Positions 9,859 to 29,627 are shown, numbered from the stretch's first letter. The stretch is DNA of 64,000 nucleotides from Lachnospiraceae bacterium (GCA_017936885.1 JAGBEO010000001.1:1733-65732), one strand, 5' to 3'. Made by a program: numbers and translations. The notes: generated by a model from the letters alone, not told the origin.

Positions 9859-10930
9859 AAGTATCACTACACCCCCTAATCTCTGCATTCTTTAATCTTC
9901 CGATAATCTTAAAATATTTACCTTTTCTACCACATGGACAATCATCTTCACCCAAAATAATTCCCTCATCCTCAGTAATCAAAGAATGCCCTGGATACGA
10001 CTCTGGAATTGTTGATACAACCTGTATAATACCCCTCTCTCCAAAATCACACTCAGAAAAATCTGTTGGTCTACGGGTAATCACATCCGAAAAAATGCTC
10101 GCATGAAGATGCCCACATTCACATTGCATATATATACATCCAGTTTGTTCTACCATTCCATAGTAATCGTGTATTTTGTCCAATCCACACATATCTTTCA
10201 GGCAATTGTGAAATTCTTTTGGGCTTACAGATTCATTAACAAGTTTCTTCCATCCACCACCATGAATGAGAATTCCGTTAGATAAATCAAATGTAATTCC
10301 TTCTTTTTTTAACTGACGCAACTCTTTATAAAAATGCTGCCATATCATAAAAGTGAAACCAAATAAAAGAATTTTCTGACCTTGAAATTTATTTAGAAAT
10401 TCTTTTAAACCTTCTACATCCAGTCTCATATCATCATCTAAAGCATACATTTTTCTTGTTCCGAATATAGAAAATCCCAAAATACCAGCACCTCTTGCTG
10501 AAAACATCGCTCTATCTTTCACGACAGATGGACAATCAATAATAATCATGGGCATACGACTAGAACCCGTAAAATCAGAAACAATTTTAACCATAGCCTT
10601 CTGTTGATTAGAAGATGTTTTTTTATCCAAAAATATTTTTGAAACAGCCTGTCCTGATGTTCCTGAGGATGTCATAGTCTTTACTATCTTTTCTTGAGGA
10701 ACACTTTTCAATGATAACTCCTTAAAAAGCCGTACCGGTAAAAAGGGCAACTCTTTATATGAAGTTACTATACAAGAATTATAGCCGATACTTTCCAATA
10801 TCCTTTTATATTCATCACAATGCTCTTTATGGTATATTGTCAACTCTACTAGGCGTTTTGTAAGAATTTTCTTCTTATCCTCTTTTTCAAGCGAATAGGG
10901 TGAAATATCTATAATTTCTTCAAATTCCAT
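9839..10930 (-). CDS. LuxE-like acyl-protein synthetase (adenylate-forming)
   Basis: TMTSSGTSGQ P-loop-like motif. Overall layout matches LuxE / F390-synthetase-like enzymes. Translationally coupled to the LuxC-like gene. Confidence 0.7.
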   Translation of the reverse strand: MEFEEIIDISPYSLEKEDKKKILTKRLVELTIYHKEHCDEYKRILESIGYNSCIVTSYKELPFLPVRLFKELSLKSVPQEKIVKTMTSSGTSGQAVSKIFLDKKTSSNQQKAMVKIVSDFTGSSRMPMIIIDCPSVVKDRAMFSARGAGILGFSIFGTRKMYALDDDMRLDVEGLKEFLNKFQGQKILLFGFTFMIWQHFYKELRQLKKEGITFDLSNGILIHGGGWKKLVNESVSPKEFHNCLKDMCGLDKIHDYYGMVEQTGCIYMQCECGHLHASIFSDVITRRPTDFSECDFGERGIIQVVSTIPESYPGHSLITEDEGIILGEDDCPCGRKGKYFKIIGRLKNAEIRGCSDTYAAKYK

Positions 10931-11642
10931 AACTATTATTTAACCTTTCCAATATTATTTCTGCCATTTTCCTGTAATGTTCCTGAATAAAGAAATGATT
11001 CCCTTCAAATTCATAGAAACAACAATTATCTGTAAAATATTGTTGCCATTGCATCATATCTTTCAATGGTGTATCAGTCTCAGAATAAAATATTGTTGCT
11101 GGAATCTTTGTTTCTAGGGAAAGTTCTTCAAACCTATATTTTCCAATGATTAAATAATCGGCTCTATATATAGGCAGATATACTCGCCAAAAAATTTTAT
11201 TATTTACTAATTTCTCTGGAATCCCACCGAATTTTATTGTTCTCTCTTTTACGTATTCATCTAATTCATTTTCATCAAAGCTTACTAATTCTGTCTTAGA
11301 ATGGGGTTCATGAGCAGCCAAAAATATATGTCTTGGAAGTAATATTTCATTTCGTTTCATTATAAGCTTCAACACTTCTATTACTGTAATACTTCCCATG
11401 CTGTATCCCATAAGTGCATAGCTATTACAACCATGGAGATAACTTCTTATGTTGCGATACATATCTTCCGCAAGCTCATTAAAATCATTATAAAATGGCT
11501 CTTTATGACGCATCCCATGTCCTGAGTATTCTAACTTAACAAACTTAATCTGTGGGAGACAGTCATCTAACTGATCAAAAAAGTTTAATGTACCTCCTGC
11601 ATATGTAAAACAAAATAAAATCATCAATTCACCTGATTCCAT
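10920..11642 (-). CDS. Type II thioesterase (alpha/beta hydrolase)
   Basis: FCFTYAGG N-terminus, GYSMGS nucleophile elbow (GxSxG) and C-terminal GNHFF, as in GrsT/TEII-type thioesterases. Confidence 0.75.
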   Translation of the reverse strand: MESGELMILFCFTYAGGTLNFFDQLDDCLPQIKFVKLEYSGHGMRHKEPFYNDFNELAEDMYRNIRSYLHGCNSYALMGYSMGSITVIEVLKLIMKRNEILLPRHIFLAAHEPHSKTELVSFDENELDEYVKERTIKFGGIPEKLVNNKIFWRVYLPIYRADYLIIGKYRFEELSLETKIPATIFYSETDTPLKDMMQWQQYFTDNCCFYEFEGNHFFIQEHYRKMAEIILERLNNSYGI

Positions 11643-11669: not shown

Positions 11670-13121
11670 TTAAATATTTCGAGCAATTTTGGATAAAATT
11701 TGTTTAAAAATATCATTTACCAAAGGCTCTTTGAGAATAAGAAGAACTATTCCGTAGAATCCAAAAAATAATGTTCCTGAAATTAATAACGAAAGAACAC
11801 TACTGAAATCAAACCATTTAACCCATATGCAACTTAAACAACTAACAACCAACGCAATAAAAATTCGACCGTAATGAATTTTCCTATAAGCATTAATTAC
11901 TTGATCTTTCAAAACAATAAGCTGATAAACAAATACAGATATCTCCGCAATCAAAGTGCCTATTGCCGCTCCAGTTGCGGCTAATTTAGGAATTAAAAGC
12001 AGATTCAAGATCAAATCAACCACTGCCCCTACTATTTCAGAATATAAAACTACAATTTCCCTATTAAGCGGAACTAATATTTGAATCCCCATGATATTAG
12101 TCAATCCAATAAATAATATCGTTGGAATAATAACCTGCATTGGAACAATTGCTCCAACATAAGAAGTCCCTGATAGAAAAAAAATCCCTTCTTTAGCATA
12201 AATAATAAAATAAATCACCATCGGTGTAGCTAATAGTGCAACAAAATTTAATGCTTTCGTGGTAATTCTGTCGAATTCTTTTATTTTTCCTTGTTCAACA
12301 TAGTAAGAGGATCTGGGTAACAACACTGTACCTAAAGAAGTCACGATACTGAGCATTACTGTTTTTATTTTTACGGCAGCATTATAATACCCTACATCTT
12401 CATCTGTTGTCATGAAGCCAAGCATTACTGTATCCAAATGTGTATATATTGTTGTTGCACATGCCATAGCAAAAAATATTGAAATTGGCTTAAAATGAAC
12501 TCTAAGGTCATACCCTCCTACTGGTTTCACATCAATATATTTATGTACATTAAAAAAGTTAAAAATATTAGATGCAGAAGAAGCAAAAATTGAAATTGCG
12601 CCATATATAACATAATCGCTCCTATGATGTATAAGTAAAAACATCGAAATCAATGCTATAAATTTAAAAATCACTGATCTAATAGTAATATATGTATATT
12701 GCTCCAATGCTTTGTAAAGCCATTCCATTCCAATTGCATTTAGTGCAATTGTAAAACTAACGATAATATACAATGTTCTATCATCATAAAGCCTCGAAAC
12801 AGTAAATAAAGCCACACCGAGAGCAATATATGCAAGTATACTCATTAAAATATTCATGAATAATAATTCATGTGCAGTTCTTGTTAATGCTACTTTATCT
12901 TCTCTAACCTTTGCACATGCACGAACTCCATATGTAGGAATTCCCATTTGAGCAAACATATTAAAGTAATATATTAATGAAGTGGCAAAAGATACTCTTC
13001 CAGTTCCTTCTGGCAATAAAATTCTTGATATATATGGAAAGGTAACTAATGGAAAAATGAATGAAGACATTGTAAGCAATGAATTCATAATAAAGTTCCT
13101 TTTTATCGATGGATGACTCAT
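11670..13121 (-). CDS. wzx: Wzx-type oligosaccharide flippase (MOP superfamily)
   Basis: 483 aa with about 12-14 TM helices. The polysaccharide-biosynthesis-protein N-terminus and the locus context fit a flippase. Confidence 0.8.
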   Translation of the reverse strand: MSHPSIKRNFIMNSLLTMSSFIFPLVTFPYISRILLPEGTGRVSFATSLIYYFNMFAQMGIPTYGVRACAKVREDKVALTRTAHELLFMNILMSILAYIALGVALFTVSRLYDDRTLYIIVSFTIALNAIGMEWLYKALEQYTYITIRSVIFKFIALISMFLLIHHRSDYVIYGAISIFASSASNIFNFFNVHKYIDVKPVGGYDLRVHFKPISIFFAMACATTIYTHLDTVMLGFMTTDEDVGYYNAAVKIKTVMLSIVTSLGTVLLPRSSYYVEQGKIKEFDRITTKALNFVALLATPMVIYFIIYAKEGIFFLSGTSYVGAIVPMQVIIPTILFIGLTNIMGIQILVPLNREIVVLYSEIVGAVVDLILNLLLIPKLAATGAAIGTLIAEISVFVYQLIVLKDQVINAYRKIHYGRIFIALVVSCLSCIWVKWFDFSSVLSLLISGTLFFGFYGIVLLILKEPLVNDIFKQILSKIARNI

Positions 13122-14356
13122 TTTTTATTTCCTTCCATAGAATCGCAAAACTCAGTATAACGTTTCAGAAAAGCTTTATCATCAAAGTATTCTTTCTGAA
13201 TTGCCCTATTTTTCATTTTCATTTCATCCAAATCACCATCAAGAATATCTATAAGCCCTGCTGTATCATTAAAATCACTCACAAACAAACCGCTGCCATC
13301 TTTAATTACTTCCAAATTTCCTCCTACCGGAGTTAGGATTGGAATTCCTCCATAATACATAGCCTCAAGTGTTGATAAATCAAAAATAGAGTATTTATGA
13401 AATAAAATATAAAAATCCGATATAGAAAAAAGTTGTAGAATTTCTTCATGAGACATATAGTCTTTTATCCATATTGTCTCCTTTTGAATCCCGGCTTTTT
13501 CTATTTCCAAAGCTACAGTCTCTGCTTGAACACCATTTCCTACAAGTACCCACTTAAAATTAATTCCCGAACTCTTCACTTGACCAAGGTACTGTGGAAT
13601 TCTCTCTACAGCTTTTGCGGTATTAAGGGTGGCAACAGTCGTAAAAATATAACCTTTAAATCTTTGAAGTTCTTTAATCCACTTGCTGCAATCAGCTAAA
13701 TTTATGTCAGGACAATTTACACCATTGTACAGGAAGCAATATTGACATTTAGCTTCATATTTTCTTAATTCGTTTTCAGATTCAAAAAAACTGTTCTTTG
13801 CACCTTCTGACGGAAAACCTATATAATGCATATTTGATATTATCTGCTCATAGCAGCTTTCGTAATATTTCTTCACGGCAATGCAATCATACCCATGAGA
13901 CGCCCTCCATTCATTATAAAAACTTCCTTGTGTATGAATTACCATGATACATTTGGGGAATGAATATAAATTTACAAAAGATCTAGCAAATTGAAGATCG
14001 TGAAAAATATAGATATCATCACATGTAAAATGATATGTTTCTCCCAACTTTTTCATATATGATTGAAGTCGCAAATAATTCTTTTCATATTGTCTAACCT
14101 TGACGAATCCTGGAATATTTCTTGTAATAAATGCTTTTACCACCGAACTTGATTTCTTTTTTTTCTCAGCTAACGGTCCACTATCATTATTACCTTGTAT
14201 TACTCGATCTCCAAACACAAAATATGCATTATTCAACAAACTATATTTCTTATTTGCTTGGTATAGTCTATATACAACCCCTTGTCCACCACCTGTTTCC
14301 CCATAACATGGCTGATATGCAAAAATAAATGTTCTACTCACTTGACTGACCTCCAT
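13118..14356 (-). CDS. GT-B glycosyltransferase (GT4/GT1-like)
   Basis: C-terminal EAMYYGGIPILTPVGGNLEVIKDG matches the E-x7-E-type GT-B motif. Confidence 0.75.
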   Translation of the reverse strand: MEVSQVSRTFIFAYQPCYGETGGGQGVVYRLYQANKKYSLLNNAYFVFGDRVIQGNNDSGPLAEKKKKSSSVVKAFITRNIPGFVKVRQYEKNYLRLQSYMKKLGETYHFTCDDIYIFHDLQFARSFVNLYSFPKCIMVIHTQGSFYNEWRASHGYDCIAVKKYYESCYEQIISNMHYIGFPSEGAKNSFFESENELRKYEAKCQYCFLYNGVNCPDINLADCSKWIKELQRFKGYIFTTVATLNTAKAVERIPQYLGQVKSSGINFKWVLVGNGVQAETVALEIEKAGIQKETIWIKDYMSHEEILQLFSISDFYILFHKYSIFDLSTLEAMYYGGIPILTPVGGNLEVIKDGSGLFVSDFNDTAGLIDILDGDLDEMKMKNRAIQKEYFDDKAFLKRYTEFCDSMEGNKK

Positions 14357-15617
14357 ATAAAAATTGCTTTTCCTTTATTATTGTTGGTATATAATAGCAC
14401 AAGGCAAATAACAAAAGCGGAAAAGAGTCTCTGAAAATATGGTCATCCGTAATCATGCAAATCAGCAGTGCAATAAAACTTGCACTTATAACACAGGCAA
14501 CTTTATCATACAGAAAACGGTAATTGCTCTTACTGCAAATGGAAATATAAATAAGAAACAAGATCAATGCTATAATTCCGCCTTCATATAATATCCATAA
14601 GAAACTGCTATGCGGATTACCCAATGAAAGGATTCTCCATACTTCAACATTTCCTTCATCTAAATATCCACGTCCAATAATAGGATGTTCAAGCCAAGCA
14701 TTAATTGCGTTAATCCATATTGATACCCTAGTAGAAATCTTAACTTGTCTATTCATGACATTAGACATCCACGACATCAACAAATTTAACCACTGTGAGT
14801 CATTATTCGTATAAAAGAATACATATACAGCAATAATAATAGCTATAATAGACTTTAAACTAAATTTAATCTTATATTTATGCAATAAATAAATACCAAT
14901 AAACATTACAATGATAATATAATTAGTTGCGGAATTTGCAATAAGAACTTCTGCAAGGCAAGTAATAATTAATACTTTGCTTCGAAAACATAATTTTCCC
15001 TGATTATTCACAAAATATGAATACAATACTGCTACGCATAATGCTGGTAATACATATCTAATAAGAGTCGTTTGATGTCCCAATAACCAGTGAACTCTTG
15101 TAGAACTTGTCCGCACAAAGTCTCTTGTATTTTTTACCACCTCATCTCCCAATGTTCCTGTGACAGAATGATACATTCCGTTAGGATACAAAATCATAAA
15201 AAACAAATTAACATAATTTAAGACTTCCATTACCTTCATTAAAATAGTAATTGTTCGCATTGCTTTATATCTACTAAATAAATAAGAAATAAGCAGCACA
15301 AAAGATATTCTTCGGATTGTTCTTATTAAACACAAACCAAACTTATCCGGACACATGAAAAGAGTAGAAAATAAAAAGTATCCAAAAAAAAGAGACGTAA
15401 AGACAATAAGTTTATTAAATGCTCTTCTTTTTGCAAAAAAAGTAATAAAAAATACATCACTTACACAAATAATAATCAAACATATCGAACTCCAGCCAGG
15501 TATATCCACTACTCTTGTTACAAAAGTTGTAACATATAAAATAAACAAAATTGTGTATATAACATCCTTTATGTTGAATTTTAAGCTCATTTTTTTTTCA
15601 GCCTTTTTCAACCTCAT
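14334..15617 (-). CDS. wzy: Wzy-type O-antigen/capsule repeat-unit polymerase
   Basis: Polytopic membrane protein with a large loop and a Wzy_C-like segment (GNPHSSFLWILYEGGIIAL). AAGGAG lies 9 nt upstream of the ATG. Confidence 0.7.
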   Translation of the reverse strand: MRLKKAEKKMSLKFNIKDVIYTILFILYVTTFVTRVVDIPGWSSICLIIICVSDVFFITFFAKRRAFNKLIVFTSLFFGYFLFSTLFMCPDKFGLCLIRTIRRISFVLLISYLFSRYKAMRTITILMKVMEVLNYVNLFFMILYPNGMYHSVTGTLGDEVVKNTRDFVRTSSTRVHWLLGHQTTLIRYVLPALCVAVLYSYFVNNQGKLCFRSKVLIITCLAEVLIANSATNYIIIVMFIGIYLLHKYKIKFSLKSIIAIIIAVYVFFYTNNDSQWLNLLMSWMSNVMNRQVKISTRVSIWINAINAWLEHPIIGRGYLDEGNVEVWRILSLGNPHSSFLWILYEGGIIALILFLIYISICSKSNYRFLYDKVACVISASFIALLICMITDDHIFRDSFPLLLFALCYYIPTIIKEKQFLYGGQSSE

Positions 15618-15643: not shown

Positions 15644-16789
15644 TCAATACCTTAGTGTATTTTCATACGCTTCTACATAAAAATTTTTCAGTTTTTTAGA
15701 TTCATATCTAATATCATATCCTGCTTCAATAAGTTCTTCTGCTTTATCTGACCGCTCATAATTTTTTATTCCAAGTAAATAATCAGCCCAAATCTCAGGT
15801 TCCTGATTTAAAGAAAACACACCAAATTGATTAAAAGTGTTCATTTCCGGATCTAACGAATCAGAGATAGCCCCCTTAAGACCAGTGCACTGAACTTCCA
15901 CAGTAACAACACTAAAGCCTTCATATAAGGATGGAAAAACAAAACAATCCATGGCTTGTAAATAATCAGCTACATTACTTACAGACCCTGTAAAGATAAT
16001 CTTATCCAATATGCATAACCGATTTGCTTTTTCAATTATTTTTTCTTTTAATGGACCTTCTCCAATCATTAATAAGCGCGATTTAGGTTCCTTTTCAAGC
16101 AGTTTGCTGAATATGTCTATCACAAAAGACTGATTCTTTTGATTTCCTTCATATCTCCCAACGTGCCCGACTAAATACTCGTCTGATATTCCTAACTGCT
16201 TTCTGACAGTCGTCCTTATCCCCATATCATAATGAAAAGAATCCGTATTAATTGCATTATGCAAAACGAAATTCTTTGGATTATCCATTATTTTTTTACC
16301 AAATGCACTTTCTCCTGCCTGTTTACCACATCCTATACAATGGGTTGCCAGCTTTTGTGCATTATATCTTAAGATTTTCCTATAAATCGGTCTTATTATT
16401 GGATTACATTTATCTGCCATAATGTTATAATCACAGTGAGAATGAAGAATTCTTATGGGGACTCCATGTTTTTTTGCCATATAGAGTGGCAATATTTTTT
16501 CCGGAAAATTATTATGAACAATATCAAACTTGTATGTTTTGAAAAGATTCTCATACTCCTTAATATTTTGCTTATTAATTCTAATTACATGTACAGGAGA
16601 TAATTGATGCACAATGAATCCCATACTTTCAAAATATTTTTGTCTTGGAATATATGGATCCATATGTGTTACAATATGAAGCTCAAATTTATTTCTGTCC
16701 ATATTAGAAAAATAGTTCTCAAATACTTTTTCCACTCCACCATTGTGGAATCCTTTAATAAATAAACATATCTTAATTTTCCTATTCAT
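15644..16789 (-). CDS. GT4-family glycosyltransferase
   Basis: FVFPSLYEGFSVVTVEVQCTGL (EX7E motif) and an N-terminal GT4 fold. Confidence 0.8.
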   Translation of the reverse strand: MNRKIKICLFIKGFHNGGVEKVFENYFSNMDRNKFELHIVTHMDPYIPRQKYFESMGFIVHQLSPVHVIRINKQNIKEYENLFKTYKFDIVHNNFPEKILPLYMAKKHGVPIRILHSHCDYNIMADKCNPIIRPIYRKILRYNAQKLATHCIGCGKQAGESAFGKKIMDNPKNFVLHNAINTDSFHYDMGIRTTVRKQLGISDEYLVGHVGRYEGNQKNQSFVIDIFSKLLEKEPKSRLLMIGEGPLKEKIIEKANRLCILDKIIFTGSVSNVADYLQAMDCFVFPSLYEGFSVVTVEVQCTGLKGAISDSLDPEMNTFNQFGVFSLNQEPEIWADYLLGIKNYERSDKAEELIEAGYDIRYESKKLKNFYVEAYENTLRY

Positions 16790-16813: not shown

Positions 16814-17839
16814 TCACATAAAATCCTTCTCTTCTAATAATGTATCGGATTCAACATCATGTCTTAATGTCCTTCCTAAATACTTCTTCTTATCATCCAG
16901 TGCAACACCAATTCCAGGTCTTTTACCATCCAAATCCTCTGCGCCAATAATCTCTCCTGCTTTCATGTCTCTAACATAAATCAAACTACGACGCATTTTC
17001 GTTCTCTGTTCGATTTCTTCCTTGGATACAATCCTTTCATACGATCCTAGAGCCTGCTGTACATTCCTGCAGGAATCCACAAGTTTTTTCATTTCGTCCG
17101 GCTCAGTTGCCATCTGATTATCCATACCTATCTTCGTCTTATCCAAGGTTAAATGTTTTTCAATGAGACATGCCCCCAATGCAATAGCAGCAGAAGCCAT
17201 TTCTGTTCCAATAGAATGGTCTGAAAAGCCAATCGTATAATCAGGAAATTCATTCTTTAGCATGCAGATATTGTATAAATTTATAGTTTCCGGTGCTGCG
17301 GGATAAATAGAAATGCAATGCAACAGGCAAATATTTTTATTTCCTGCACTTTCAATAACACTTACCGCTTTTCTTATCTCATCCATATCGCCCATTCCTG
17401 TTGATAGAACAATTGGGAAACCGGTTTTCGCTATATATTCCAAAAAATCGTAATTATTCAGCTCCATTGAAGCAATTTTAATAAAAGGAACTTTATTTTT
17501 CACTAGAAAATCAACTTCTTTTTTAGAATATGGAGTCGAAGAAAAGGCAATTTTTTTTTCACTGCAATATTCCACAATATCTAAAAGCTGTTCCTCACTC
17601 AAAGCAAATTTTTTTACAAATCTTTTAGAGATTGGGTTTTGCGCATAATATGTTTTTGAATACAATGATTCAGTTGACCATGATTGAAATTTAACACAGT
17701 TGCATCCGCATTCTACAGCAGCATCAATCATTTTCTTTGCAACATTAACATCTCCGTTATGGCTTGAATTAACTTCAGCAATCACATAAGGACTCCATCC
17801 CTGTCCCACTTCTGTACCATCTTTAAATTTAATACTCAT
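16814..17839 (-). CDS. NeuB-family (N-acylneuraminate / nonulosonate synthase-like) PEP-aldehyde condensing enzyme with SAF domain
   Basis: YVIAEVNSSHNGDVNVAKKMIDAAVECGCNCVKFQ, LSTGMG, GFSDHS, IEKHLTLD, and a C-terminal SAF-like segment RRSLIYVRDMKAGEII. Confidence 0.85.
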   Translation of the reverse strand: MSIKFKDGTEVGQGWSPYVIAEVNSSHNGDVNVAKKMIDAAVECGCNCVKFQSWSTESLYSKTYYAQNPISKRFVKKFALSEEQLLDIVEYCSEKKIAFSSTPYSKKEVDFLVKNKVPFIKIASMELNNYDFLEYIAKTGFPIVLSTGMGDMDEIRKAVSVIESAGNKNICLLHCISIYPAAPETINLYNICMLKNEFPDYTIGFSDHSIGTEMASAAIALGACLIEKHLTLDKTKIGMDNQMATEPDEMKKLVDSCRNVQQALGSYERIVSKEEIEQRTKMRRSLIYVRDMKAGEIIGAEDLDGKRPGIGVALDDKKKYLGRTLRHDVESDTLLEEKDFM

Positions 17840-17852
17840 TTTAATTCCTTCC

Positions 17853-18599
17853 CTACGACCACAATCTTCCGCCATCAACAACCATAACCTGTCCAGTCAT
17901 AAATGATGATTGATCTGATGCCAAAAATACAATTGCATTTGCTATTTCTTCAGGATTTGCCATACGCTTCATGCTGCTTCTATCTAATACTTTTTGAAGA
18001 TCAGCATCTGGAATTTCTTTATTCATTTTGGTATCTGTCAAGCCCGGTGCCAATGCGTTAACTCGAATATTATACTGTGCAAGTTCTTTCGAAATTGTCT
18101 TCGAGGCATAAATCAATGCAGCCTTACTGGAACCATATGCCAATTTTCCCTCCGTCGTTTCTATACCACTTACAGATGCGACATTCACAATAGAACCTTT
18201 TTTCTGCCTCATCATCAATCTGGCAACCAATTGCATTATATAAATTTGTTCAAAATAATTAACTTCAAACACTTCCTTTAACTTGCTGATCGATGTCATG
18301 GTAAACATACCATTGTAAACTGTACCAGCAGCATTCACCAGCACGTCTATACTTCTTTTTTCCAAAGAAATTTCCTTAATAGCAGTCTTCATTTGACTCT
18401 CATTAGTCATATCAAAATATACTGCTTTAATCCATACGCCGTATTGATTAGCTATATTCTGCAAATCCTGTTCAAACTGTTCCGTTTTAGTGCGGGTACA
18501 TGCCCACACATTTCCGCCATTTTCAGCGATTTTATTTACAGTTGCCAGACCTATTCCGCCTCCTGCTCCAGTGACTATTACATTTTTATTTTTTAACAT
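17853..18599 (-). CDS. SDR-family oxidoreductase (FabG-like)
   Basis: VTGAGGGIG cofactor motif and YGSSKAAL catalytic YxxxK. Confidence 0.85.
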   Translation of the reverse strand: MLKNKNVIVTGAGGGIGLATVNKIAENGGNVWACTRTKTEQFEQDLQNIANQYGVWIKAVYFDMTNESQMKTAIKEISLEKRSIDVLVNAAGTVYNGMFTMTSISKLKEVFEVNYFEQIYIMQLVARLMMRQKKGSIVNVASVSGIETTEGKLAYGSSKAALIYASKTISKELAQYNIRVNALAPGLTDTKMNKEIPDADLQKVLDRSSMKRMANPEEIANAIVFLASDQSSFMTGQVMVVDGGRLWS

Positions 18600-18616
18600 C
18601 TTGCATCCTCACTCAA

Positions 18617-20008
18617 TCACTTTACCGGCAACTGTGAGTACAGGACTTTGCCAGACTCATTATGCGGAATTTCATCAATATGTTTAACAGAAAACGCTGT
18701 TCTATTTAAACCTGTTTTGGAAGAGATAAATTCAACTAGTTTTTCGCAATCATCCGCAGTTGTATAAACAAGCATATGATCATCTTCGCCAACACATGCG
18801 ACTTCATATCCTTCTTTACCAAAAAGGTCTTCTACTTCTACCAAATTTACACGATTACCAAAAATTTTAAGGAAACGTTTCTTTCTGCCAACTACATAAT
18901 AAAAACCATCCTTATCTCTTTTAGCCATATCTCCAGTCTCAAGGCGGCCTTTTCGTTCATCACCCTTATTCAGATCTTCTCTGGATTCTGCATATCCAGG
19001 GGTAACATTTGGTCCATAATAAACCAATTCGCCAACTTGCTCTGGCTCAGTAATCACACTGCCATCCACATCAATAAGTTCAAAATGTCCACCAGGGATT
19101 GCAATGCCAATACTTCCGGCTTTTTCTACCGTTTTATCTGCAGGTACATAACTCATTCTTGCTGTAGCTTCAGTAGCGCCATACATAACTACAAGTGCCT
19201 TCCCTTTTTCACGCATACCTAACCCAAACTTACCGTGAAGCTCTTCTCCCAATCTTCCTCCTGCCTGAGTAATATATCTGAGAGAAGGGAGATCCATTTG
19301 AAGAAAACGTAATTTATCCAACATTTGATATGTATAAGGAACTGCACCAAAAGTAGTAGCCTGAGACTTCTGGAAGTAATCCCAAAAACCTCTGTCAAAG
19401 AAGGTCTGTTCTGTTAGTATAAGTCTTGCTCCTGCCAAAAGATGTGACTGGACAATTGATAGTCCATAAGTGTAATTCATTGGCAAAGTTGTTATTGCCC
19501 TATCTTGCGGAAGAATCCCTAAATATTTAACGATAGCTTCGGTATTGGACTGAATATTGACATATGTTTGTCTCACGAATTTAGGACTCCCTGTACTACC
19601 GGATGTTGTCAGCATAACAGCTAAATCTTCATCCATTGCCGGAACCTGTGTTCCGGTTTCGATAAGTTTATAATTCTCCATCTCATATACAGGCAAATTA
19701 TCTACGAAATCATTTGGGCACCAAATATACTGTGGCTTGTAAATATTTACAAGATTTTCATACAATGCCCTATCAATTGTATGACCAAGCATTACTGGCA
19801 CAATCCCTTTTTGAAGGAAACCAACATATCCAGCAACTGCCCCAATTGAATTTTGGCAAATGCAAAAAAGCAACGAACGCTGCGAAATACGGCTTGAAAT
19901 TTCCTGAGCCATTTTATCCAGCTGCCCATAAGTAATTTCTCTGGATTCCTCCATCAATGCTACGGAATCCTCAAATTGTGCAAGATTGCACCAAAAATAA
20001 TTGCTCAT
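18617..20008 (-). CDS. AMP-binding adenylate-forming ligase (acyl/aminoacyl-carrier-protein ligase-like)
   Basis: TTSGSTGSPKFV, YGATEA and GDMAKRDKDGFYYVVGRKKRFLKIFGNRV core motifs. It sits immediately downstream of the carrier-protein gene. Confidence 0.85.
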   Translation of the reverse strand: MSNYFWCNLAQFEDSVALMEESREITYGQLDKMAQEISSRISQRSLLFCICQNSIGAVAGYVGFLQKGIVPVMLGHTIDRALYENLVNIYKPQYIWCPNDFVDNLPVYEMENYKLIETGTQVPAMDEDLAVMLTTSGSTGSPKFVRQTYVNIQSNTEAIVKYLGILPQDRAITTLPMNYTYGLSIVQSHLLAGARLILTEQTFFDRGFWDYFQKSQATTFGAVPYTYQMLDKLRFLQMDLPSLRYITQAGGRLGEELHGKFGLGMREKGKALVVMYGATEATARMSYVPADKTVEKAGSIGIAIPGGHFELIDVDGSVITEPEQVGELVYYGPNVTPGYAESREDLNKGDERKGRLETGDMAKRDKDGFYYVVGRKKRFLKIFGNRVNLVEVEDLFGKEGYEVACVGEDDHMLVYTTADDCEKLVEFISSKTGLNRTAFSVKHIDEIPHNESGKVLYSQLPVK

Positions 20009-20020
20009 TCTTACTACCTC

Positions 20021-20260
20021 TTAAATTTCCACTTCGTATTTCTTCAGAATTTCTTTTCCTTTTAAATAGGAAGAAAAATCAATAATATCATCCGTATCCA
20101 TCATAATATCAAATGCATCCTCAAGCGCAGCAACAAGCGACATATGACCAACAGAGTCCCATTGCTCAACACCCATATACTGAAGACTATCGAAGTCTGG
20201 ATTTGCCAGTTCGAAAGTTTCGCAAAATGCCTGATTATACTTTTCTAAATTTGTCATCAT
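20021..20260 (-). CDS. Acyl carrier protein (phosphopantetheine-binding, DltC-like)
   Basis: 79 aa, acidic, with the WDSVGHMSLV serine attachment motif. Confidence 0.8.
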   Translation of the reverse strand: MMTNLEKYNQAFCETFELANPDFDSLQYMGVEQWDSVGHMSLVAALEDAFDIMMDTDDIIDFSSYLKGKEILKKYEVEI

Positions 20261-20305: not shown

Positions 20306-20977
20306 TTACTCCTCCTCAACTATTTTCCTATACTTCATTTTATTTGCCGGAATACCGGCCACCTTCTGATCAGGCTTTATATTAGCAAATACCATGCTTC
20401 CCGAGTAAACTTGGACATTGTCTCCGATTTGTATATGTTCCATTAAGAAAGCATGACTCCCAATCCGAACCTTCTTACCTATATCAGCATTTGTAATATT
20501 GGCAAGTGCATCTATTGTCGTATATGCACCTACATGAGCGGCTCCCGCCATAACATTTATCATCGTCACAAACTCATCAAATACCGCCCCATCTTTAAAA
20601 CTATAATTTGATATTACACAGCCTTCACCTATATGGAGATGATCCGGCACCAAAGTCCAAGGAGTAAGAATTGTCAAAAAATCTGCGCCTTTATCTTTCA
20701 GAATTTTCGCAAAGTGTTCTTTACTTTCAGGATTTTTTATTCCCATAACATATTGTTCATTTTTAGTTGGCTGCCATGAATCTATATCTCCTAAAATTGG
20801 TTTAATGCTATTGTCAACCAATCTAAACGGATGCGAGTGGTTAGAAATAAAACCCATAATATTGTATGTGTCATTAGATAACCGTTCTTTTTCAACATAA
20901 CCATTGATCTCATTTAAAATTGAATATATTTCTAATCCAAATAAATCCTCACAGACTATGATTACATTTTTTTGCAT
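20306..20977 (-). CDS. NeuD/PglD-type sugar N/O-acyltransferase (left-handed beta-helix), paralog 2
   Basis: N-terminal Rossmann-like NVIIVCEDLFG followed by C-terminal hexapeptide repeats. Paralogous to the adjacent gene. Confidence 0.75.
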   Translation of the reverse strand: MQKNVIIVCEDLFGLEIYSILNEINGYVEKERLSNDTYNIMGFISNHSHPFRLVDNSIKPILGDIDSWQPTKNEQYVMGIKNPESKEHFAKILKDKGADFLTILTPWTLVPDHLHIGEGCVISNYSFKDGAVFDEFVTMINVMAGAAHVGAYTTIDALANITNADIGKKVRIGSHAFLMEHIQIGDNVQVYSGSMVFANIKPDQKVAGIPANKMKYRKIVEEE

Positions 20978-20997: not shown

Positions 20998-21642
20998 TTA
21001 CATCTGCGATTCAACCGCAGGAAATCCAAATACTTTCTTATCTGAAGGAATATCTTTTGTTACAATACTTCCTGCTGAAATATTGACATTACTGCCTACT
21101 GTTACTCCTTCCGTAACAACTGCATGACTGCCAACATAAACGCCCTCACCAATAGACGCATTTTCAACAACTGCAAATCCTGTTGTGGTACTGTAATCTC
21201 CAATAACAGCTCCCGGCATAATCATTGATCCGTGCATATTAACATAGTTTCCTATCTTTACACCACTTGCGATATGGTAAGCTTTTATCAGGCAGCCTTC
21301 ACCAATTATTAAATCTTCAGGAAGAATAACATAAGGTGCAATAATTGTTTCAAACTGGCAACCTCTGTCTTTGAGCTTTTCCACGACTTCTTTCTTTGAT
21401 GAAGGCTTGCCTAATCCAAGTGCATAGGCTTCATGTCCAACAGGTTTCCAATCTTTAATTGTCCCTAAAATAGGAAGATCAATTTCTGTATTATCTAAAG
21501 CATCCGGAATATCATTAATAAATCCCAATAAATTGTATGGTTCCTCTTTCCCATCTTTTTTTGCAGCCTGGTTTATTTTTCTTATGGTATAGTACATTTC
21601 TTTTCCATAACTGCCCGCACATACAATAATGATATCTTTCAT
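20998..21642 (-). CDS. NeuD/PglD-type sugar N/O-acyltransferase (left-handed beta-helix), paralog 1
   Basis: MKDIIIVCAGSYGKE N-terminus and hexapeptide repeats (IGEGVYVGSHAVVTEGVTVGSNVNISAGSIV). Confidence 0.75.
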   Translation of the reverse strand: MKDIIIVCAGSYGKEMYYTIRKINQAAKKDGKEEPYNLLGFINDIPDALDNTEIDLPILGTIKDWKPVGHEAYALGLGKPSSKKEVVEKLKDRGCQFETIIAPYVILPEDLIIGEGCLIKAYHIASGVKIGNYVNMHGSMIMPGAVIGDYSTTTGFAVVENASIGEGVYVGSHAVVTEGVTVGSNVNISAGSIVTKDIPSDKKVFGFPAVESQM

Positions 21643-21663: not shown

Positions 21664-22626
21664 TCAATTAACTTTGAATGACTTTTTGAAAGAGTACTTT
21701 AAGCTTCGTCTACACCCTACACTTTCTTTAAAATCACATAATCCATAATTTGGAATACTGTCCTCTGTTGCTATTTCTTTGTTCAATATCTTATAGCCTA
21801 AATTTCCATAATAATTAATAGTAAAATAGGTCAGCATATTCATTCCATTATCTCCTGCATGATCAGGAAGTGTCCCTGTATATATGCCCTGTACAATTTC
21901 TTTATTAATTCGATATAAAAATTCAGCAACTATCCCAATCTCCCCATTTCTTACGATAAACACATCATGATCTACTAATTTCATTGTATCCATCAATTGT
22001 TCAAAAGACATACGAACGGGAAATCCTTTAAACTCATGTCCCATTTTCACTATTTCATATGCCTCAGCATATTCTTCTTCCGTTTCACATTTTTGAATGG
22101 TGAGACCATTTCTCTGTGCGCGTCTTAAACTCTTTCTTCCTTTAGCTGTAATCAATTGACCATAAGATTCGACATCAACATTCATCTCCTCTAAATCAAT
22201 TGCATAATTCACATCTATTTTAGTCAGTTCATAATTACATCGATAGAATGAACTAATCCATGCAGACAAAATATGCTCATCATAAAACATAGGAGGAAAA
22301 GTAAATCTAATTTCTGACACTCCAATGCTAATACAATAATTTTCTAAAGCCTGCACCGCCTCATCGTATGTAGCTAATTTTTCATTCTTTTTAATTTCCA
22401 CGGGATAAGAATAAGATGCCGAAAAAGGGCATTTAACCAAATCACCCGTTCTACCTAATATCAAACCAAATTTTGCAGCCTTCTCTCTCATAAATATAAG
22501 ATAATAGACCTCATCAACTTTATCCCTATTCAATTCACAAAAAACCGGCTCATTAAAAAATATACGTCTATCTAAGACCAAACTTGTATATTCTTCTGCC
22601 GTAACTCTTAAAACATCCATAAACAA
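21664..22626 (-). CDS. FemAB/GNAT-fold acyl(aminoacyl)transferase-like protein
   Basis: About 320 aa with a two-lobed layout and a GRKSLRRAQRNGL segment reminiscent of FemAB/Acetyltransf_6 proteins found in glycan loci. The assignment is tentative. Confidence 0.4.
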   Translation of the reverse strand: MFMDVLRVTAEEYTSLVLDRRIFFNEPVFCELNRDKVDEVYYLIFMREKAAKFGLILGRTGDLVKCPFSASYSYPVEIKKNEKLATYDEAVQALENYCISIGVSEIRFTFPPMFYDEHILSAWISSFYRCNYELTKIDVNYAIDLEEMNVDVESYGQLITAKGRKSLRRAQRNGLTIQKCETEEEYAEAYEIVKMGHEFKGFPVRMSFEQLMDTMKLVDHDVFIVRNGEIGIVAEFLYRINKEIVQGIYTGTLPDHAGDNGMNMLTYFTINYYGNLGYKILNKEIATEDSIPNYGLCDFKESVGCRRSLKYSFKKSFKVN

Positions 22627-22634
22627 TTAATCCC

Positions 22635-23441
22635 TTATACTTTTCCGTAAAGTTCTTTCGCCGTATTCATACTTAGTGCATGTCCTTGCTCATCATATCC
22701 GACAAAATAAGATGCCGCATTTCCTTTCGCGCGTCGGTCTCTTACCTTTACTTCAAAAACCATCTTTACCAATAAGAAACACATACGGATATCTGTTATT
22801 AAACTCACATGCTCGACATACCAAATATCATTTTCAAACTGAATGTGGTACTGACACAGTCGTTCGCCTTCAGGCATAATAACACGAGGGCATTCCAATC
22901 CAGGTCGAACAACTGTCCTCATTTTATGTCTATCATTCATACGATCATGAAAAAACATCGGTAAAGGTCTGGGTCCAATAATGGACATGTCACCCTTTAA
23001 TACACTCCAAAAATTTAATAATTCATCCAAAGAATACTTGCGCATAATACGACCAAACTTGGTAACTCTCTCAGAAACCGGTAAGAGCTGCCCATTTTTA
23101 TCCTTATTATTATTCATATTTCTAAATTTAACTAACACGAATTCCTTGCCATCTTTTCCGCATCTGGATTGCTTGTATAAGATCGGGCTTCCCACATCTA
23201 TAAATGTACAAATTGCAAAAATCAGATTAAACGGCAAAAGAACTGTACACGCCGATAGCGATATCACAATATCTATCACTCTTTTACCATACTTTGTATA
23301 AAAAGTTTTTTTCGGGCATACTTTTTTTGCAACTTCGTTGGCATGAACAAGATTTTTAGTTCTTAACATTTCTGCCATTTCAGCTTCATTCCAAGAGATC
23401 AGGCTTGAATTTCCCACATATTTCTTTTCATCTATAATCAT
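22635..23441 (-). CDS. Small monotopic phosphoglycosyl transferase (PglC/WbaP C-terminal-type priming sugar transferase)
   Basis: KRVIDIVISL...SPILYKQSRCGKDGKEFVLVKFRNM...LDELLNFWSVLKGDMSIIGPRP is the bacterial sugar-transferase signature. Confidence 0.88.
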   Translation of the reverse strand: MIIDEKKYVGNSSLISWNEAEMAEMLRTKNLVHANEVAKKVCPKKTFYTKYGKRVIDIVISLSACTVLLPFNLIFAICTFIDVGSPILYKQSRCGKDGKEFVLVKFRNMNNNKDKNGQLLPVSERVTKFGRIMRKYSLDELLNFWSVLKGDMSIIGPRPLPMFFHDRMNDRHKMRTVVRPGLECPRVIMPEGERLCQYHIQFENDIWYVEHVSLITDIRMCFLLVKMVFEVKVRDRRAKGNAASYFVGYDEQGHALSMNTAKELYGKV

Positions 23442-23456
23442 CTATAATTAAAAACC

Positions 23457-24566
23457 TCAGAATTCATTAATAACATCAATCACATACTGCACTTCTTCAT
23501 TTGACATACCATAATACATTGGCAGACTTAGCTCTGTGGCACTGATTTCTTCTGCAATAGGATAATCACCTTGTTTAAAGTCTAAATCTTTGTAACACTT
23601 TTGCAAATGCATAGGAATAGGATAATGTTTATTCGTACCAACTCCCTTATTTTTAAGATACGCTTCCAATTCATCTCTTCTCTTACAACGAATTCCAAAA
23701 ATATGCCAAACCGGAACTGCATCCTCAATTATGTATGGAAGAATCACATCCGGATTCTTAATTCCTTTCAAGTATCGATCTGCTATTCTACGTCTTTCTA
23801 CATTCATTCTCTCAAGATGCGGAAGCTTTGCCGCAAGAAATGCCGCCTGCATTTCATCAAGTCTGGAATTGTGCCCCTGATAAATGTGATGATATTTATA
23901 ATCAGAACCATAATTGCCCAAAGCTCTTACTCTATCAGCCAGTTCTCTATTGTTGGTCAATGCCGCGCCAGCATCACCAAGTGCTCCCAGATTCTTGCCC
24001 GGATAAAAACTAAAACCTGCCGCATTACCAAAAGAGCCTACCTTCTTCCCTTTATATGTTGCACCATGAGCCTGTGCGCAATCCTCAATCACATACAAAT
24101 TATGCCGTTTTGCAATTTCCATGATTGGATCCATATCACAAGGTTGACCATAAAGATGTACCGGCATAATAGCTTTTGTCTTATCTGAAACAGCTGATTC
24201 TATTTTGCGTGGATCTATATTAAAGGTTCTGATATCTGGCTCTACAAAAACAATCGTTGCTCCCACATATGTGACGGCTAAGGCTGTTGCAATATATGTA
24301 TTGGAAGGTATAATAACTTCATCTCCTGATTTAATATCGAGTGCTTTCAGGATAAGCATCAATGCGTCAAGACCATTGCCAACACCAACACAGTAATTAA
24401 CTGTACAATATTCAGCAAAAGCTTTCTCAAACTTTTCGTCTTCTTTACCATCAATATACCAACTTCGTGTATATACTCTCTCAAATGCAGTTCTCAAATC
24501 TTTATCTAATTCACGCTCCATTGGAAGAAAACTAACAAAAGGGATTTCCATAATCTCATTCCTCAT
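23457..24566 (-). CDS. DegT/DnrJ/EryC1-family PLP-dependent sugar aminotransferase (FdtB/QdtB-like)
   Basis: Full-length match to the family layout and adjacency to the 3,4-ketoisomerase gene. The start may be the Met at 24551. Confidence 0.88.
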
Positions 24567-25005
24567 CCTGCTTCTTTTTTACATATGCTAAGTACTCATC
24601 ATAATCTCTAATGTATTCATCCGGATCATAGTATTCAGAAGCAGCGACACAGAGTACAGAATCATCATGTTTCCATATCATTTCTCTCCAAAGCCCCGGA
24701 TGAAGAACCAACCCTTTAGATGGCTCATCTAATGTCACCGTTTCGATATCTACACCGTCATTTAGAATAATTTCTATTGAACCATACGGACAAAAAAGTA
24801 ATTGCCAATTTTCTTTATGTGCATGAAAACCTCTATGCTGATTTTTTTCAGTTCTGTAAATGCAATAAACTCTCTGGATTGAAAATGGAATATCTCTTTT
24901 ACTCTCAACAAAAGACAAACCACCTAATTTGGGATCCGGATTCATTACAGTGTTAAGATTCATCAACTCGTACTTCATAACTAATTTCCTTTTCAAATTA
25001 ATCAT
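24556..25005 (-). CDS. FdtA/QdtA-type (WxcM-like cupin) dTDP-4-keto-6-deoxyhexose 3,4-ketoisomerase
   Basis: [44 protein letters not shown] is the family signature. The start codon is uncertain (alternative Met at 24978). Confidence 0.8.
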
Positions 25006-25317
25006 TATATTTCATTAATAACATCAAAAATATTCTTATATATCTCATTAATACCGCTTATCATACCATTATTTCAACAATAACTCCTCTTCAAACCAAG
25101 TCACTTATGAACATTTAAGTATCCCCTCTGGTATGATAATTTCAACCTTTTAATATTCAAATTCAAAGAATCATTTTAAAAATTAGTTCTATTTTCATTT
25201 AATAATTTTCCACCTCGATAAATTATATTCAACGTAGTATAATAGATCCGCTACAAATACATTTATTGTTAACCATACCTCGCTTTTTTGTTTCACAATA
25301 AAAAACTCCCAACATAA

Positions 25318-25337
25318 GACAATTACATACCTTACAT
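25318..25337. repeat. Left arm of a perfect 20-bp inverted repeat flanking Rpn copy B
   Basis: GACAATTACATACCTTACAT is the exact reverse complement of 26555-26574. Confidence 0.95.
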
Positions 25338-25390
25338 CAGGAGTTTCTTCCATAAATATTATTCAGCTGTATAATTTCAGACCTTTCTTC

Positions 25391-26287
25391 CTATCTTCCA
25401 GCTTCTGCAAGCACAAGCTCTTCCTTCGTGCAGTTCAGAATACTCATAATCAAATCTTCTTCCAGTCCAACCTGCAACATCTTCTGCATCGTTTGATGTC
25501 TTTCTTCTGCTCTGCCAATTTCTCTTTCTTCTTTCATCCAATCATCCAATGCTTTACACATAGGCATTCCCTCCTCTACCTGCTCAAACAGTCTGTCATT
25601 CCCCAGATGCACAGCAATCACCCGCTCTGTTTCCCGACTGAGTTTCCGAAATCTTTCCGTTTGACACAGTTCCTTTAATTGTTTCTTATCTCTACGGCAC
25701 TGCATCGCCTGAAAGAATTCCCTCAAATCTGTGCAATACTTTTCAGGCTGAACATACTCTGTCTCTATAAGCGGGAAATCATAATCCCAAAGTCTCCTGC
25801 CAAGCTGATGCTTTACCTGTTCCGAAACCCGAAACATCTCCCAAAGCTTCATTTTGCCTTCCCAGTGCCCTTCCCCTATATAAAGAACTATCGTCACAGT
25901 TGGAATCAGAAAGTCGCTTTCCTTCAAGCGGCTCTTCTTATCACGGTATTTCTTATATTCTCCTTTGTCTCTATGTGCCTTGTAAATCTCTCGTATCTGA
26001 TATTCATACTCGCTGGCATCATAAGTCATGACACGTTCCGGCATACTATAATCAGACTCTGTCTCAATTTCCAATCCATAGCAGATGTTCTGTCCGGTAT
26101 CCTGCATCAGCACATCCCTGACTTTCTCACCGGATGACGATGCAAGGGAAGGATAACTTCTCTTAAGCAACTTCAATCTATCCGGCACAAGAATTTCCTT
26201 TCCGTGATACAGTTCCGTGTTAATCAGTTCCGCAAACCGCTCCCGGTCACCAAAGAATTTTTTATCCAGTATGTCAAATTTTCCCAT
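25391..26287 (-). CDS. Rpn (YhgA-like) family recombination-promoting nuclease / putative transposase, copy B
   Basis: MGKFDILDKKFF... is collinear with copy A (same EIE.ESDYSMPER core). Start is placed at the Met equivalent to the copy A start, preceded by GGAAAGGGG. Confidence 0.8.
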   Translation of the reverse strand: MGKFDILDKKFFGDRERFAELINTELYHGKEILVPDRLKLLKRSYPSLASSSGEKVRDVLMQDTGQNICYGLEIETESDYSMPERVMTYDASEYEYQIREIYKAHRDKGEYKKYRDKKSRLKESDFLIPTVTIVLYIGEGHWEGKMKLWEMFRVSEQVKHQLGRRLWDYDFPLIETEYVQPEKYCTDLREFFQAMQCRRDKKQLKELCQTERFRKLSRETERVIAVHLGNDRLFEQVEEGMPMCKALDDWMKEEREIGRAEERHQTMQKMLQVGLEEDLIMSILNCTKEELVLAEAGR

Positions 26288-26352
26288 ATACCCCTTTCCG
26301 GCTGTATGTATCACACTACTGTACTGCATACAATATCGCAGCTTCTTACCAC

Positions 26353-26445
26353 CAGCCATTTTCATTTATTTATGTGAAATATGGCTGATAACGCCGGAAC
26401 CGGATATATCCGGTTATGCAATCCAGAACAGGATTGGAATTTCAC
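26353..26445 (-). promoter_or_regulatory. Structured 5' leader element of Rpn copy B
   Basis: Same architecture as copy A: GTGAAAT (26374-26380) / ATTTCAC (26439-26445), hairpins AACCGGAT..ATCCGGTT and CAATCC-AGAACA-GGATTG, and an alternative stem CAGCCAT (26353-26359) / ATGGCTG (26381-26387). Confidence 0.55.
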
Positions 26446-28373: not shown

Positions 28374-28449
28374 TTTTTATTTGCTCCCGTGTCCGGCATA
28401 CATATATCATGATTGTCTATCAAGTCAGGACATCATAAGCTTTCCGTCC

Positions 28450-29610: not shown

Positions 29611-29627
29611 ATTGATACCTTTCCCAA

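Follow-up and report, generated by a model that had tools for sequence, protein, structure and literature searches.

A NeuB-like protein of a Lachnospiraceae capsule operon is a probable phosphoenolpyruvate-dependent chain-extension enzyme of a glycan-decoration module

Four consecutive minus-strand genes at positions 16814-20260 of a 64,000-nucleotide stretch of DNA from a Lachnospiraceae bacterium (GCA_017936885.1 JAGBEO010000001.1:1733-65732; the whole stretch is called the window below) encode a divergent acyl carrier protein (ACP), an AMP-binding ligase, a FabG-like short-chain dehydrogenase/reductase (SDR) and a NeuB-like synthase. A first-pass annotation of this DNA had described this block, and all four genes were recovered by Pfam and profile searches. 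We consider it probable that the NeuB-like protein is not a nonulosonic-acid synthase, and that it performs the phosphoenolpyruvate (PEP)-dependent C3-extension step of a glycan-decoration module. The module would consist of the ACP, the adenylating ligase, a thioesterase (TE) or metallo-beta-lactamase-type (MBL) hydrolase, LuxE, LuxC and the NeuB-like protein. This grade applies to the full explanation, including a guess at the fate of the product in the window; the core claim by itself is held somewhat more firmly, and the guess is tentative and rather doubtful. Every chemical step proposed here was deduced by comparative genomics from the observed gene content, conserved residues and co-occurrence.

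The longest open reading frame (ORF) of the NeuB-like gene spans 16814-17881, and its start was placed at the ATG at 17839, which has a GGAAGG Shine-Dalgarno sequence and lies 13 nt past the stop codon of the SDR gene. The protein shares the fold of NeuB, LegI, PseI and SpsE, a TIM barrel followed by a SAF domain, and is about 35-40% identical to the solved NeuB, SpsE and PseI structures. The catalytic, metal-binding and PEP-binding residues and the Arg of the SAF domain are all kept, and the equivalents of NmNeuB E25, K53, Q55, K129, S132, Y186, S213-H215, H236, D247 and R314 were invariant in 120 clade members. The same chemistry is presumed, i.e., the condensation of PEP with an aldehyde to give a 3-deoxy-2-keto acid. 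On the other hand, the description of the protein as a canonical NeuB had to be abandoned. It scored 317.8 bits against the NCBIfam equivalog of NeuB (TIGR03569; cut-off 399.65) and 270 bits against that of PseI (TIGR03586; cut-off 340.25), and reached neither cut-off. Clade-specific invariant residues (N24, S26, R73, Y104, M239 and N241) stand beside the catalytic positions; N24 and S26 sit in an E-x-G-x-N-H motif, and N241 follows the catalytic Asp. Among 1.8 billion representatives clustered at 50%, a single one, at 432 bits, stood for the whole clade, and the representative after it scored 330 bits. The 120 best homologs show 60-76% identity despite their distribution over distant phyla. 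Judged from its sequence, the NeuB-like protein falls in a clade that is tied to the module and separate from NeuB, LegI and PseI, although automatic annotation labels the proteins of this clade 'N-acetylneuraminate synthase'.

Sequences just outside the clade were compared as well. A classical legionaminic-type cluster, which includes two CTP_transf_3 genes, surrounds the outgroup control P0125 (48% identity), while P0122 (48%) and P0124 (45%) are still located in clusters of the order FabA-ThDP-NeuB-ACP-ligase-(LDH)-LuxE-LuxC, where ThDP stands for a thiamine diphosphate-dependent enzyme and LDH for a lactate dehydrogenase-family gene. Nearby family members are fused to CTP_transf_3, GT2, 2'-5' RNA ligase-like, radical SAM and methyltransferase domains; none of the fusions in this survey involved a module protein, and it is informative as a control only. 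A tblastn search of the PLSDB plasmids returned only canonical homologs of less than 40% identity.

The GTDB species genomes were scanned for related loci, and 80 loci at 54-68% identity were obtained. More than 10 phyla are represented, with carriers among Lachnospiraceae, Oscillospiraceae, Selenomonadaceae, Limosilactobacillus, Bacteroidales, Melainabacteria, Margulisiibacteriota, Elusimicrobiota, Spirochaetota, SAR324, Alpha- and Gammaproteobacteria, Desulfobacter and Helicobacter. ORFs were called by a longest-ORF heuristic and clustered by BLASTP, the clusters were named by Pfam and NCBIfam, and trees were built by neighbour joining only. Counts are given for 81 loci, i.e., the 80 related loci plus the window, many of them on short contigs, and for a full-flank subset of 43 loci, in which 8 kb or more were available on each side. 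The ACP was found in 65 of the 81 loci (37 of the 43 with full flanks), the ligase in 62 (39), LuxE in 56 (39), and LuxC in 56 (41), in addition to five LuxE-LuxC fusions. A ThDP enzyme was present in 58 loci, with three further fragments, a FabA-like dehydratase in 55, an SDR in 41 and a DegT protein in 35. Thus, the NeuB-like clade almost always occurs together with the ACP, the ligase, LuxE and LuxC. In the window, the thioesterase, LuxE and LuxC genes lie in the same tightly packed operon as the carrier protein-ligase-SDR-NeuB block, in agreement with the earlier placement of a LuxCE pair at 8644-10930.

The recurrent order in the relatives is ligase-(TE/MBL)-LuxE-LuxC. In five loci (L017, L020, L067, L068 and L085), a single protein of about 772 aa combines LuxE and LuxC (for example L068:15171-17489), in support of a joint action of the two as one reductase. 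Two LuxE-LuxC pairs were found in L064, L076, L086 and partly in L045, one beside SDR-NeuB and the other beside ACP-ligase-TE, which implies two reduction steps in those pathways. In these two-pair loci, the LuxE of the SDR-NeuB-LuxE-LuxC pair forms its own clade; the LuxE of the window belongs to the ligase-(TE/MBL)-LuxE-LuxC lineage. A gene of the lactate/malate dehydrogenase family follows LuxC or precedes LuxE in ten loci (L019, L028, L051, L052, L072, L075, L080, L081, L008 and L092), a hint at lactate, malate or another 2-hydroxy acid as the starter.

The relatives also indicate where the product of the NeuB-like protein may be used. In 61 of the 80, the gene directly upstream of the NeuB-like gene encodes a JanthE/YerE-like ThDP carboligase, with a median spacing of 13 nt. 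The closest solved relatives of this enzyme are JanthE (PDB 8rph, E 1.5e-113) and then 5ahk (E 6e-75), both of which outscore other acetolactate synthases; 5ahk is deposited as an acetolactate synthase, and we take it to be PpYerE. YerE adds activated acetaldehyde, derived from pyruvate, to CDP-3,6-dideoxy-4-keto-glucose (CDP, cytidine diphosphate). The preferred donors of ErwE (erwiniose) and MMAR_2332 (caryophyllose) are C4-C6 4-hydroxy-2-oxo acids; an acylating aldehyde dehydrogenase provides an aldehyde, and a pyruvate aldolase converts it to the donor (PMC12247030, PMC9306805). For JanthE, 4-hydroxy-2-oxovalerate is an accepted substrate, while the physiological ones are unknown (PMC12188165). 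The vast majority of the newly identified YerE-like enzymes have no known branched-sugar structure (PMC12247030), and for this reason their physiological substrates are unknown. The locus of JanthE itself contains a nucleotidyltransferase, a 4,6-dehydratase, a DegT-family gene (taken by its position to be an E1-type 3-dehydrase), JanthE, a reductase, a DmpF-like dehydrogenase and a DmpG-like aldolase. No homolog of DmpF or DmpG was found in any of the 80 NeuB-like loci. The NeuB-like gene is in complementary distribution with the DmpG- and HpcH-type aldolases, whose place in the known clusters it occupies. Since a 4-hydroxy-2-oxo acid is what a NeuB-type reaction of PEP with an aldehyde yields, a non-orthologous replacement is the simplest reading, in which LuxE and LuxC would stand for the acylating dehydrogenase and the NeuB-like protein for the aldolase. 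The ErwE/ErwI/ErwJ, MMAR_2331/2332 and JanthE loci follow the same logic, from an aldehyde generator through a 4-hydroxy-2-oxo acid to a ThDP carboligase that acts on a keto sugar (PMC9306805, PMC12247030), but the NeuB-like loci lack both a DmpG/BphI- or HpcH-type aldolase and an acylating aldehyde dehydrogenase. No paper linking NeuB homologs with LuxC/LuxE, ThDP enzymes or branched sugars was found in searchable full texts. Split transketolase genes, encoding N- and C-terminal subunits, stand beside the module in six loci (L009, L010, L017, L023, L045 and L057), two of which have no YerE-like enzyme; they may provide an alternative ThDP-dependent branching enzyme.

We therefore propose the following scheme on the basis of these comparisons. 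Activation of a small carboxylic acid would come first; its handling on the carrier protein may fall to the ligase, and its tailoring there to the SDR. LuxE and LuxC would reduce the acid to an aldehyde, and the NeuB-like protein would join PEP to the aldehyde, forming a 4-hydroxy-2-oxo acid. The YerE/JanthE-like carboligase of most relatives would then use this keto acid as its donor, giving an acyl-branched sugar. The first-pass annotation had suggested a PEP condensation on a LuxCE-derived, non-sugar aldehyde as the preferred, though speculative, one of two options; the constant company of ACP, ligase, LuxE and LuxC, the coupling to the YerE-like enzyme and the scarcity of cytidylyltransferases described below make it the best-supported reading of the sequences.

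The window is a minority variant of this arrangement, one of about 17 loci in which an SDR gene instead of a ThDP enzyme gene precedes the NeuB-like gene. No homolog of a ThDP enzyme or a transketolase was detected in the window at E values up to 10, and neither a pseudogene nor a distant homolog of FabA, the MBL hydrolase or beta-ketoacyl synthase III was found in it. The SDR thus fills the slot that the ThDP enzyme has in most relatives. Its best relatives (46-50% identity) are SDRs encoded 0-150 nt from the NeuB-like gene in other ThDP-less loci, and the NeuB-adjacent SDRs of these loci show the same 46-50% identity among themselves. That the ThDP-less loci form one lineage was considered and rejected, as they are scattered across the neighbour-joining tree of the NeuB-like proteins. 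In the closest relative (L089; 74% identity), ACP-ligase-SDR-NeuB-TE-LuxE-LuxC are seven contiguous genes, while a GT-Wzy-GT-Wzx segment (GT, glycosyltransferase) is inserted between the NeuB-like and thioesterase genes of the window. The FabA-like dehydratase tracks the ThDP enzyme in the full-flank set, occurring in 28 of the 31 loci with it and in 4 of the 12 without it. Beta-helix acyltransferases were found in 11 of the 31 and in 9 of the 12, respectively; they were rejected as a strict part of the module, since 20 of the 43 loci carry them and the two copies of the window are only 22-30% identical to those of other loci, with the exception of two Lachnospiraceae loci, L007 and L008 (57-86%). 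These two left-handed beta-helix acyltransferases of the window are paralogs with 39% identity to each other.

For the window, we would tentatively suggest that the keto acid is reduced by the SDR to a 2,4-dihydroxy acid, that the ligase loads this acid onto the ACP, and that one of the beta-helix acyltransferases transfers it to a 3-amino-3,6-dideoxyhexose made by the FdtA-like and DegT proteins. It had also been proposed that the keto acid serves as a ketal substituent; the sole pointer in this direction is a polysaccharide pyruvyl transferase gene (PF04230) directly after LuxC in the closest relative (L089:6731-7819).

The 79-aa carrier protein falls below the default thresholds of Pfam. 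When a profile of 21 sequences was run against the PDB, nearly all of its matches were to acyl carrier proteins (best E 1.6e-5). From these matches and the invariant Asp35-Ser36, the 79-aa protein is assigned as a carrier protein despite the failure of Pfam. The likeness to DltC named in the earlier label is only loosely backed, the D-alanyl carrier protein being matched at E 0.66. The ligase has a conserved P-loop, YGxTE and GD motifs and the catalytic Lys454; among solved structures, oxalate- and malonate-CoA ligases and stand-alone adenylation domains come closest to it, and it is presumed to load the adjacent carrier protein. The thioesterase gene lies immediately upstream of LuxE-LuxC, and its product may have a LuxD-like releasing or an editing role. 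LuxE has a conserved Cys354, 10 residues from its C-terminus, and LuxC an invariant catalytic Cys251 within a QNAC motif; the predicted aldehyde-generating enzyme of the branched-sugar scheme is thus present in the window, while the ThDP carboligase is absent. The arrangement matches the LuxD-LuxE-LuxC logic of LuxCDE, the fatty-acid reductase of bioluminescent bacteria. The relationship is, however, very distant: the NCBIfam scores are 78 for LuxE (cut-off 550) and 41 for LuxC (cut-off 750), with matches at the level of the Pfam families, the thioesterase is of the PF00975 type and not LuxD, and there are no luciferase genes. The module LuxE-like proteins also share conserved Cys38, Cys270 and Cys331-x-Cys333, which might bind a metal or form a second thiol relay.

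Partners of a nonulosonate pathway were searched for by phmmer, using as seeds PseF, acylneuraminate cytidylyltransferase, PseG, PseB and UDP-N-acetylglucosamine 2-epimerase from annotated or Pfam-labelled loci, two plasmid loci from PLSDB among them. The six frames of the whole window contained no homolog of a CMP-nonulosonate synthetase (CMP, cytidine monophosphate), PseG, PseB or the 2-epimerase, so that the reported lack of a CMP-sugar synthetase or epimerase partner in the locus was upheld. Within 10 kb in the 80 related loci, a cytidylyltransferase homolog occurred in three, a PseG homolog in one and a 2-epimerase homolog in one; the missing CMP-synthetase and hydrolase/epimerase partners distinguish the NeuB-like loci from those of NeuB, LegI, PseI and SpsE. 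One of the three cytidylyltransferase loci, L055, has its own separate PseI-like synthase, with PseF, PseB and PseG, beside the module; this synthase groups with the outgroup in the tree, and the module NeuB-like protein is a second copy there. The locus, from a Lachnospiraceae genome, combines canonical PseB-PseF-PseI genes and a PseG-like gene (2-2213 and 9992-11032) with a full module, like the flagellar glycosylation islands of Aeromonas.

These results bear on the other option that had been named, an orphan nonulosonate synthase. Here, the NeuB-like protein would convert a hexosamine produced off the locus into a legionaminic-, pseudaminic- or neuraminic-type acid, and the ACP, ligase, SDR and LuxE/LuxC would make only an N-acyl group that decorates the nonulosonate or a 3-amino sugar. 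The fold and the complete set of catalytic residues, the R314 equivalent included, agree with such a role, the nearest relative outside the module is a Leg-type synthase, and flagellar islands of Aeromonas and enterobacteria pair ACP/FabG/ligase/LuxE/LuxC sets with pse genes (PMC7874193, PMC4875605). The window, moreover, already relies on off-locus genes for its nucleotide-sugar precursor. Comparative genomics nevertheless argues against this option: 77 of the 80 related loci have no cytidylyltransferase inside 10 kb, the full Pse set of L055 brings its own canonical PseI, both equivalog scores fall short, the substitutions adjoin catalytic positions, and the gene follows that of a ThDP enzyme or an SDR in close coupling, at a 13-nt spacing. 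We judge an orphan synthase to be improbable.

Several points weigh against the preferred assignment of the NeuB-like protein as a C3-extension enzyme. The R314 equivalent is conserved in the clade, and in NmNeuB this residue presumably contacts the N-acetyl group of N-acetylmannosamine. The ThDP enzyme, from which the keto-acid reading draws its support in the literature, is missing from the window. Neither a nucleotidyltransferase nor a 4,6-dehydratase for the substrate of the FdtA-like protein was found in the 64 kb, so that off-locus genes are needed for dTDP-4-keto-6-deoxyglucose (dTDP, deoxythymidine diphosphate); since sugar-precursor genes must lie elsewhere, the absence of a CMP-synthetase from the 64 kb is no proof for the whole genome. 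In Aeromonas flagellar islands, an ACP/SDR/ligase/LuxE/LuxC set stands beside a full pse cluster (PMC7874193), which means that such modules can decorate true nonulosonic acids. Finally, the order of the steps is ambiguous. The recurrent ligase-(TE/MBL)-LuxE-LuxC order and the FabA-like dehydratase favour ACP chemistry before the reduction, as does the analogy with Lux, where LuxD releases, LuxE re-activates and LuxC reduces; in that order, the window variant would have no obvious way of attaching the keto acid.

Two further schemes place the carrier protein or the aldehyde differently. In the first, the ligase would load a dicarboxylic or hydroxy acid onto the ACP, LuxE/LuxC would reduce its free carboxyl group, and the NeuB-like protein would extend the tethered aldehyde, all intermediates staying on the ACP until an acyltransferase or thioesterase releases them. 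The closest solved relatives of the ligase, being oxalate and malonate ligases, would suit such a route, and the FabA-like dehydratase of the ThDP loci fits a 3-hydroxyacyl-ACP product. The ACP is also unusually conserved across phyla (mean column identity 58% in alignment A2; 30 positions conserved at 85% or more), which suggests many protein partners. The route is purely inferential, however; we know of no NeuB-family enzyme that acts on a carrier-bound substrate, and the LuxE enzymes of bacterial luciferase systems activate free acids. We give a tethered route a small chance. In the second scheme, the product of the NeuB-like protein would itself be sugar-like, a short 3-deoxy-2-ulosonic acid made from a 3-hydroxy aldehyde and used as a monomer or joined to an amino sugar by reductive amination. 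The FabG-like SDR could give a 3-hydroxyacyl-ACP, the thioesterase, LuxE and LuxC could convert it to the 3-hydroxy aldehyde, and as a matter of chemistry alone the PEP adduct could cyclise like Kdo. Against it, neither an activating nucleotidyltransferase nor an opine-type dehydrogenase is present, and the route is to our knowledge without precedent; it appears very improbable.

The C3-extension reading also bears on glycan loci beyond the window. We lean, with some reserve, towards a second widespread role of the NeuB family, spread over more than 10 phyla, in which an aldehyde from LuxE/LuxC and PEP would give a 4-hydroxy-2-oxo acid that is then grafted onto keto sugars by a YerE-like ThDP enzyme or, in the capsule of the window, reduced and attached through a carrier-protein route. 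If this is true, the sialic-acid-like surface mimicry of gut and oral bacteria deduced from the 'N-acetylneuraminate synthase' label would be wrong for the whole clade, whose carriers here include Lachnospiraceae, Selenomonas, Helicobacter, Bacteroidales, Melainabacteria, spirochaetes and others. The products would be long C-branched sugars or dihydroxyacyl amides, not described from these organisms, and the reading points to undescribed sugar decorations on the capsules of abundant gut anaerobes. It would name a possible physiological origin for the 4-hydroxy-2-oxo acids that YerE-like carboligases need as donors, and would give a concrete chemical role to the ACP/ligase/LuxE/LuxC genes that recur, so far without explanation, in glycan and flagellin-glycosylation loci.

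By gene content, the same core of carrier protein, ligase and LuxE/LuxC, together with beta-helix acyltransferases, can be likened to sets in the flagellin islands of Aeromonas group II and Enterobacteriaceae. No dedicated NeuB-like gene figures in the descriptions of those sets; their function is unproven, and they are called 'fatty acid synthesis / liposugar' in the papers. The rfbKLMNO tetronate genes of Vibrio cholerae O1 presumably have the same core of carrier protein, ligase and LuxE-LuxC-type reductase, again likened by gene content. The window contains what an rfbKLMNO-like N-acyl module comprises: carrier protein, ligase, LuxE/LuxC-type reductase, beta-helix acyltransferase and amino-sugar genes.

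The block belongs to a capsule-type operon of 18 genes on the minus strand, running from 25005 to 7515, with neighbouring genes overlapping or spaced by at most 45 nt (Table 1). Its G+C content is 31-39%, compared with 43-50% in the flanks, and it is syntenic gene for gene with L007 and L008, the loci of two other Lachnospiraceae metagenome-assembled genomes. The low G+C content and this synteny point to horizontal exchange of the whole cassette. Proteins encoded in the flanks share 90% identity or more with those of Lachnospiraceae metagenome-assembled genomes, which places the host in this family.

Table 1. The 18 genes of the capsule-type operon, in operon order
Gene product	Coordinates	Strand	Match
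FdtA-like 3,4-ketoisomerase	24556-25005	-	Pfam FdtA, E 2e-40
DegT aminotransferase	23457-24566	-	Pfam DegT, E 8e-118
Bac_transf initiating phosphotransferase	22635-23441	-	Pfam Bac_transf, E 2e-47
320-aa protein	21664-22626	-	FemAB, E 0.018, below cut-off
Beta-helix acyltransferase (NeuD/PglD/VioB-type), copy 1	20998-21642	-	Pfam Hexapep; NCBIfam TIGR03570 below cut-off
Beta-helix acyltransferase (NeuD/PglD/VioB-type), copy 2	20306-20977	-	Pfam Hexapep; NCBIfam TIGR03570 below cut-off
Divergent acyl carrier protein, 79 aa, WDSVGHMS	20021-20260	-	Profile vs PDB; PP-binding, E 0.015
ANL-family AMP-binding ligase	18617-20008	-	Pfam AMP-binding, E 4e-43
FabG-like classical SDR	17853-18599	-	Pfam adh_short_C2, E 3e-56
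NeuB-like synthase, TIM barrel + SAF, 341 aa	16814-17839	-	NeuB PF03102, E 4e-80; SAF PF08666, E 2e-8
GT1	15644-16789	-	Pfam
Wzy	14334-15617	-	Pfam
GT1	13118-14356	-	Pfam
Wzx	11670-13121	-	Pfam
Type II thioesterase (PF00975)	10920-11642	-	Pfam Thioesterase, E 2e-23
LuxE-like acyl-protein synthetase	9839-10930	-	Pfam LuxE, E 1e-56
LuxC-like acyl reductase (aldehyde-forming, predicted)	8644-9888	-	Pfam LuxC, E 4e-28
UDP-galactopyranose mutase	7515-8627	-	Pfam

The 320-aa protein had no significant family match and no PDB match. It belongs to cluster 33, which is kept only in the window and the two syntenic loci L007 and L008, and it may act as an amide-forming transferase in making the decoration.

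Upstream of the operon on the same strand, there are CpsB, Wzz/CpsC, CpsD, LytR-CpsA-Psr, sortase-like and Ig-like surface protein genes, typical Gram-positive capsule regulators. A hairpin of 20 pairs followed by a T-run at 25302-25347 (minus strand) lies between a 324-aa ORF and the first gene of the operon, and is probably a terminator that parts the capsule regulatory genes from the biosynthetic operon. The 324-aa ORF (25391-26365), situated between the cps regulators and the variable operon, gave a weak match to a YhgA-like transposase (E 0.0025) and may be a recombination-associated gene at the border of the cassette. At 27516-30488, the sortase-like gene (a weak match) and the LytR-CpsA-Psr gene are found with a gene for a small Ig-like/InlK-domain surface protein, which is unusual in a cps locus.

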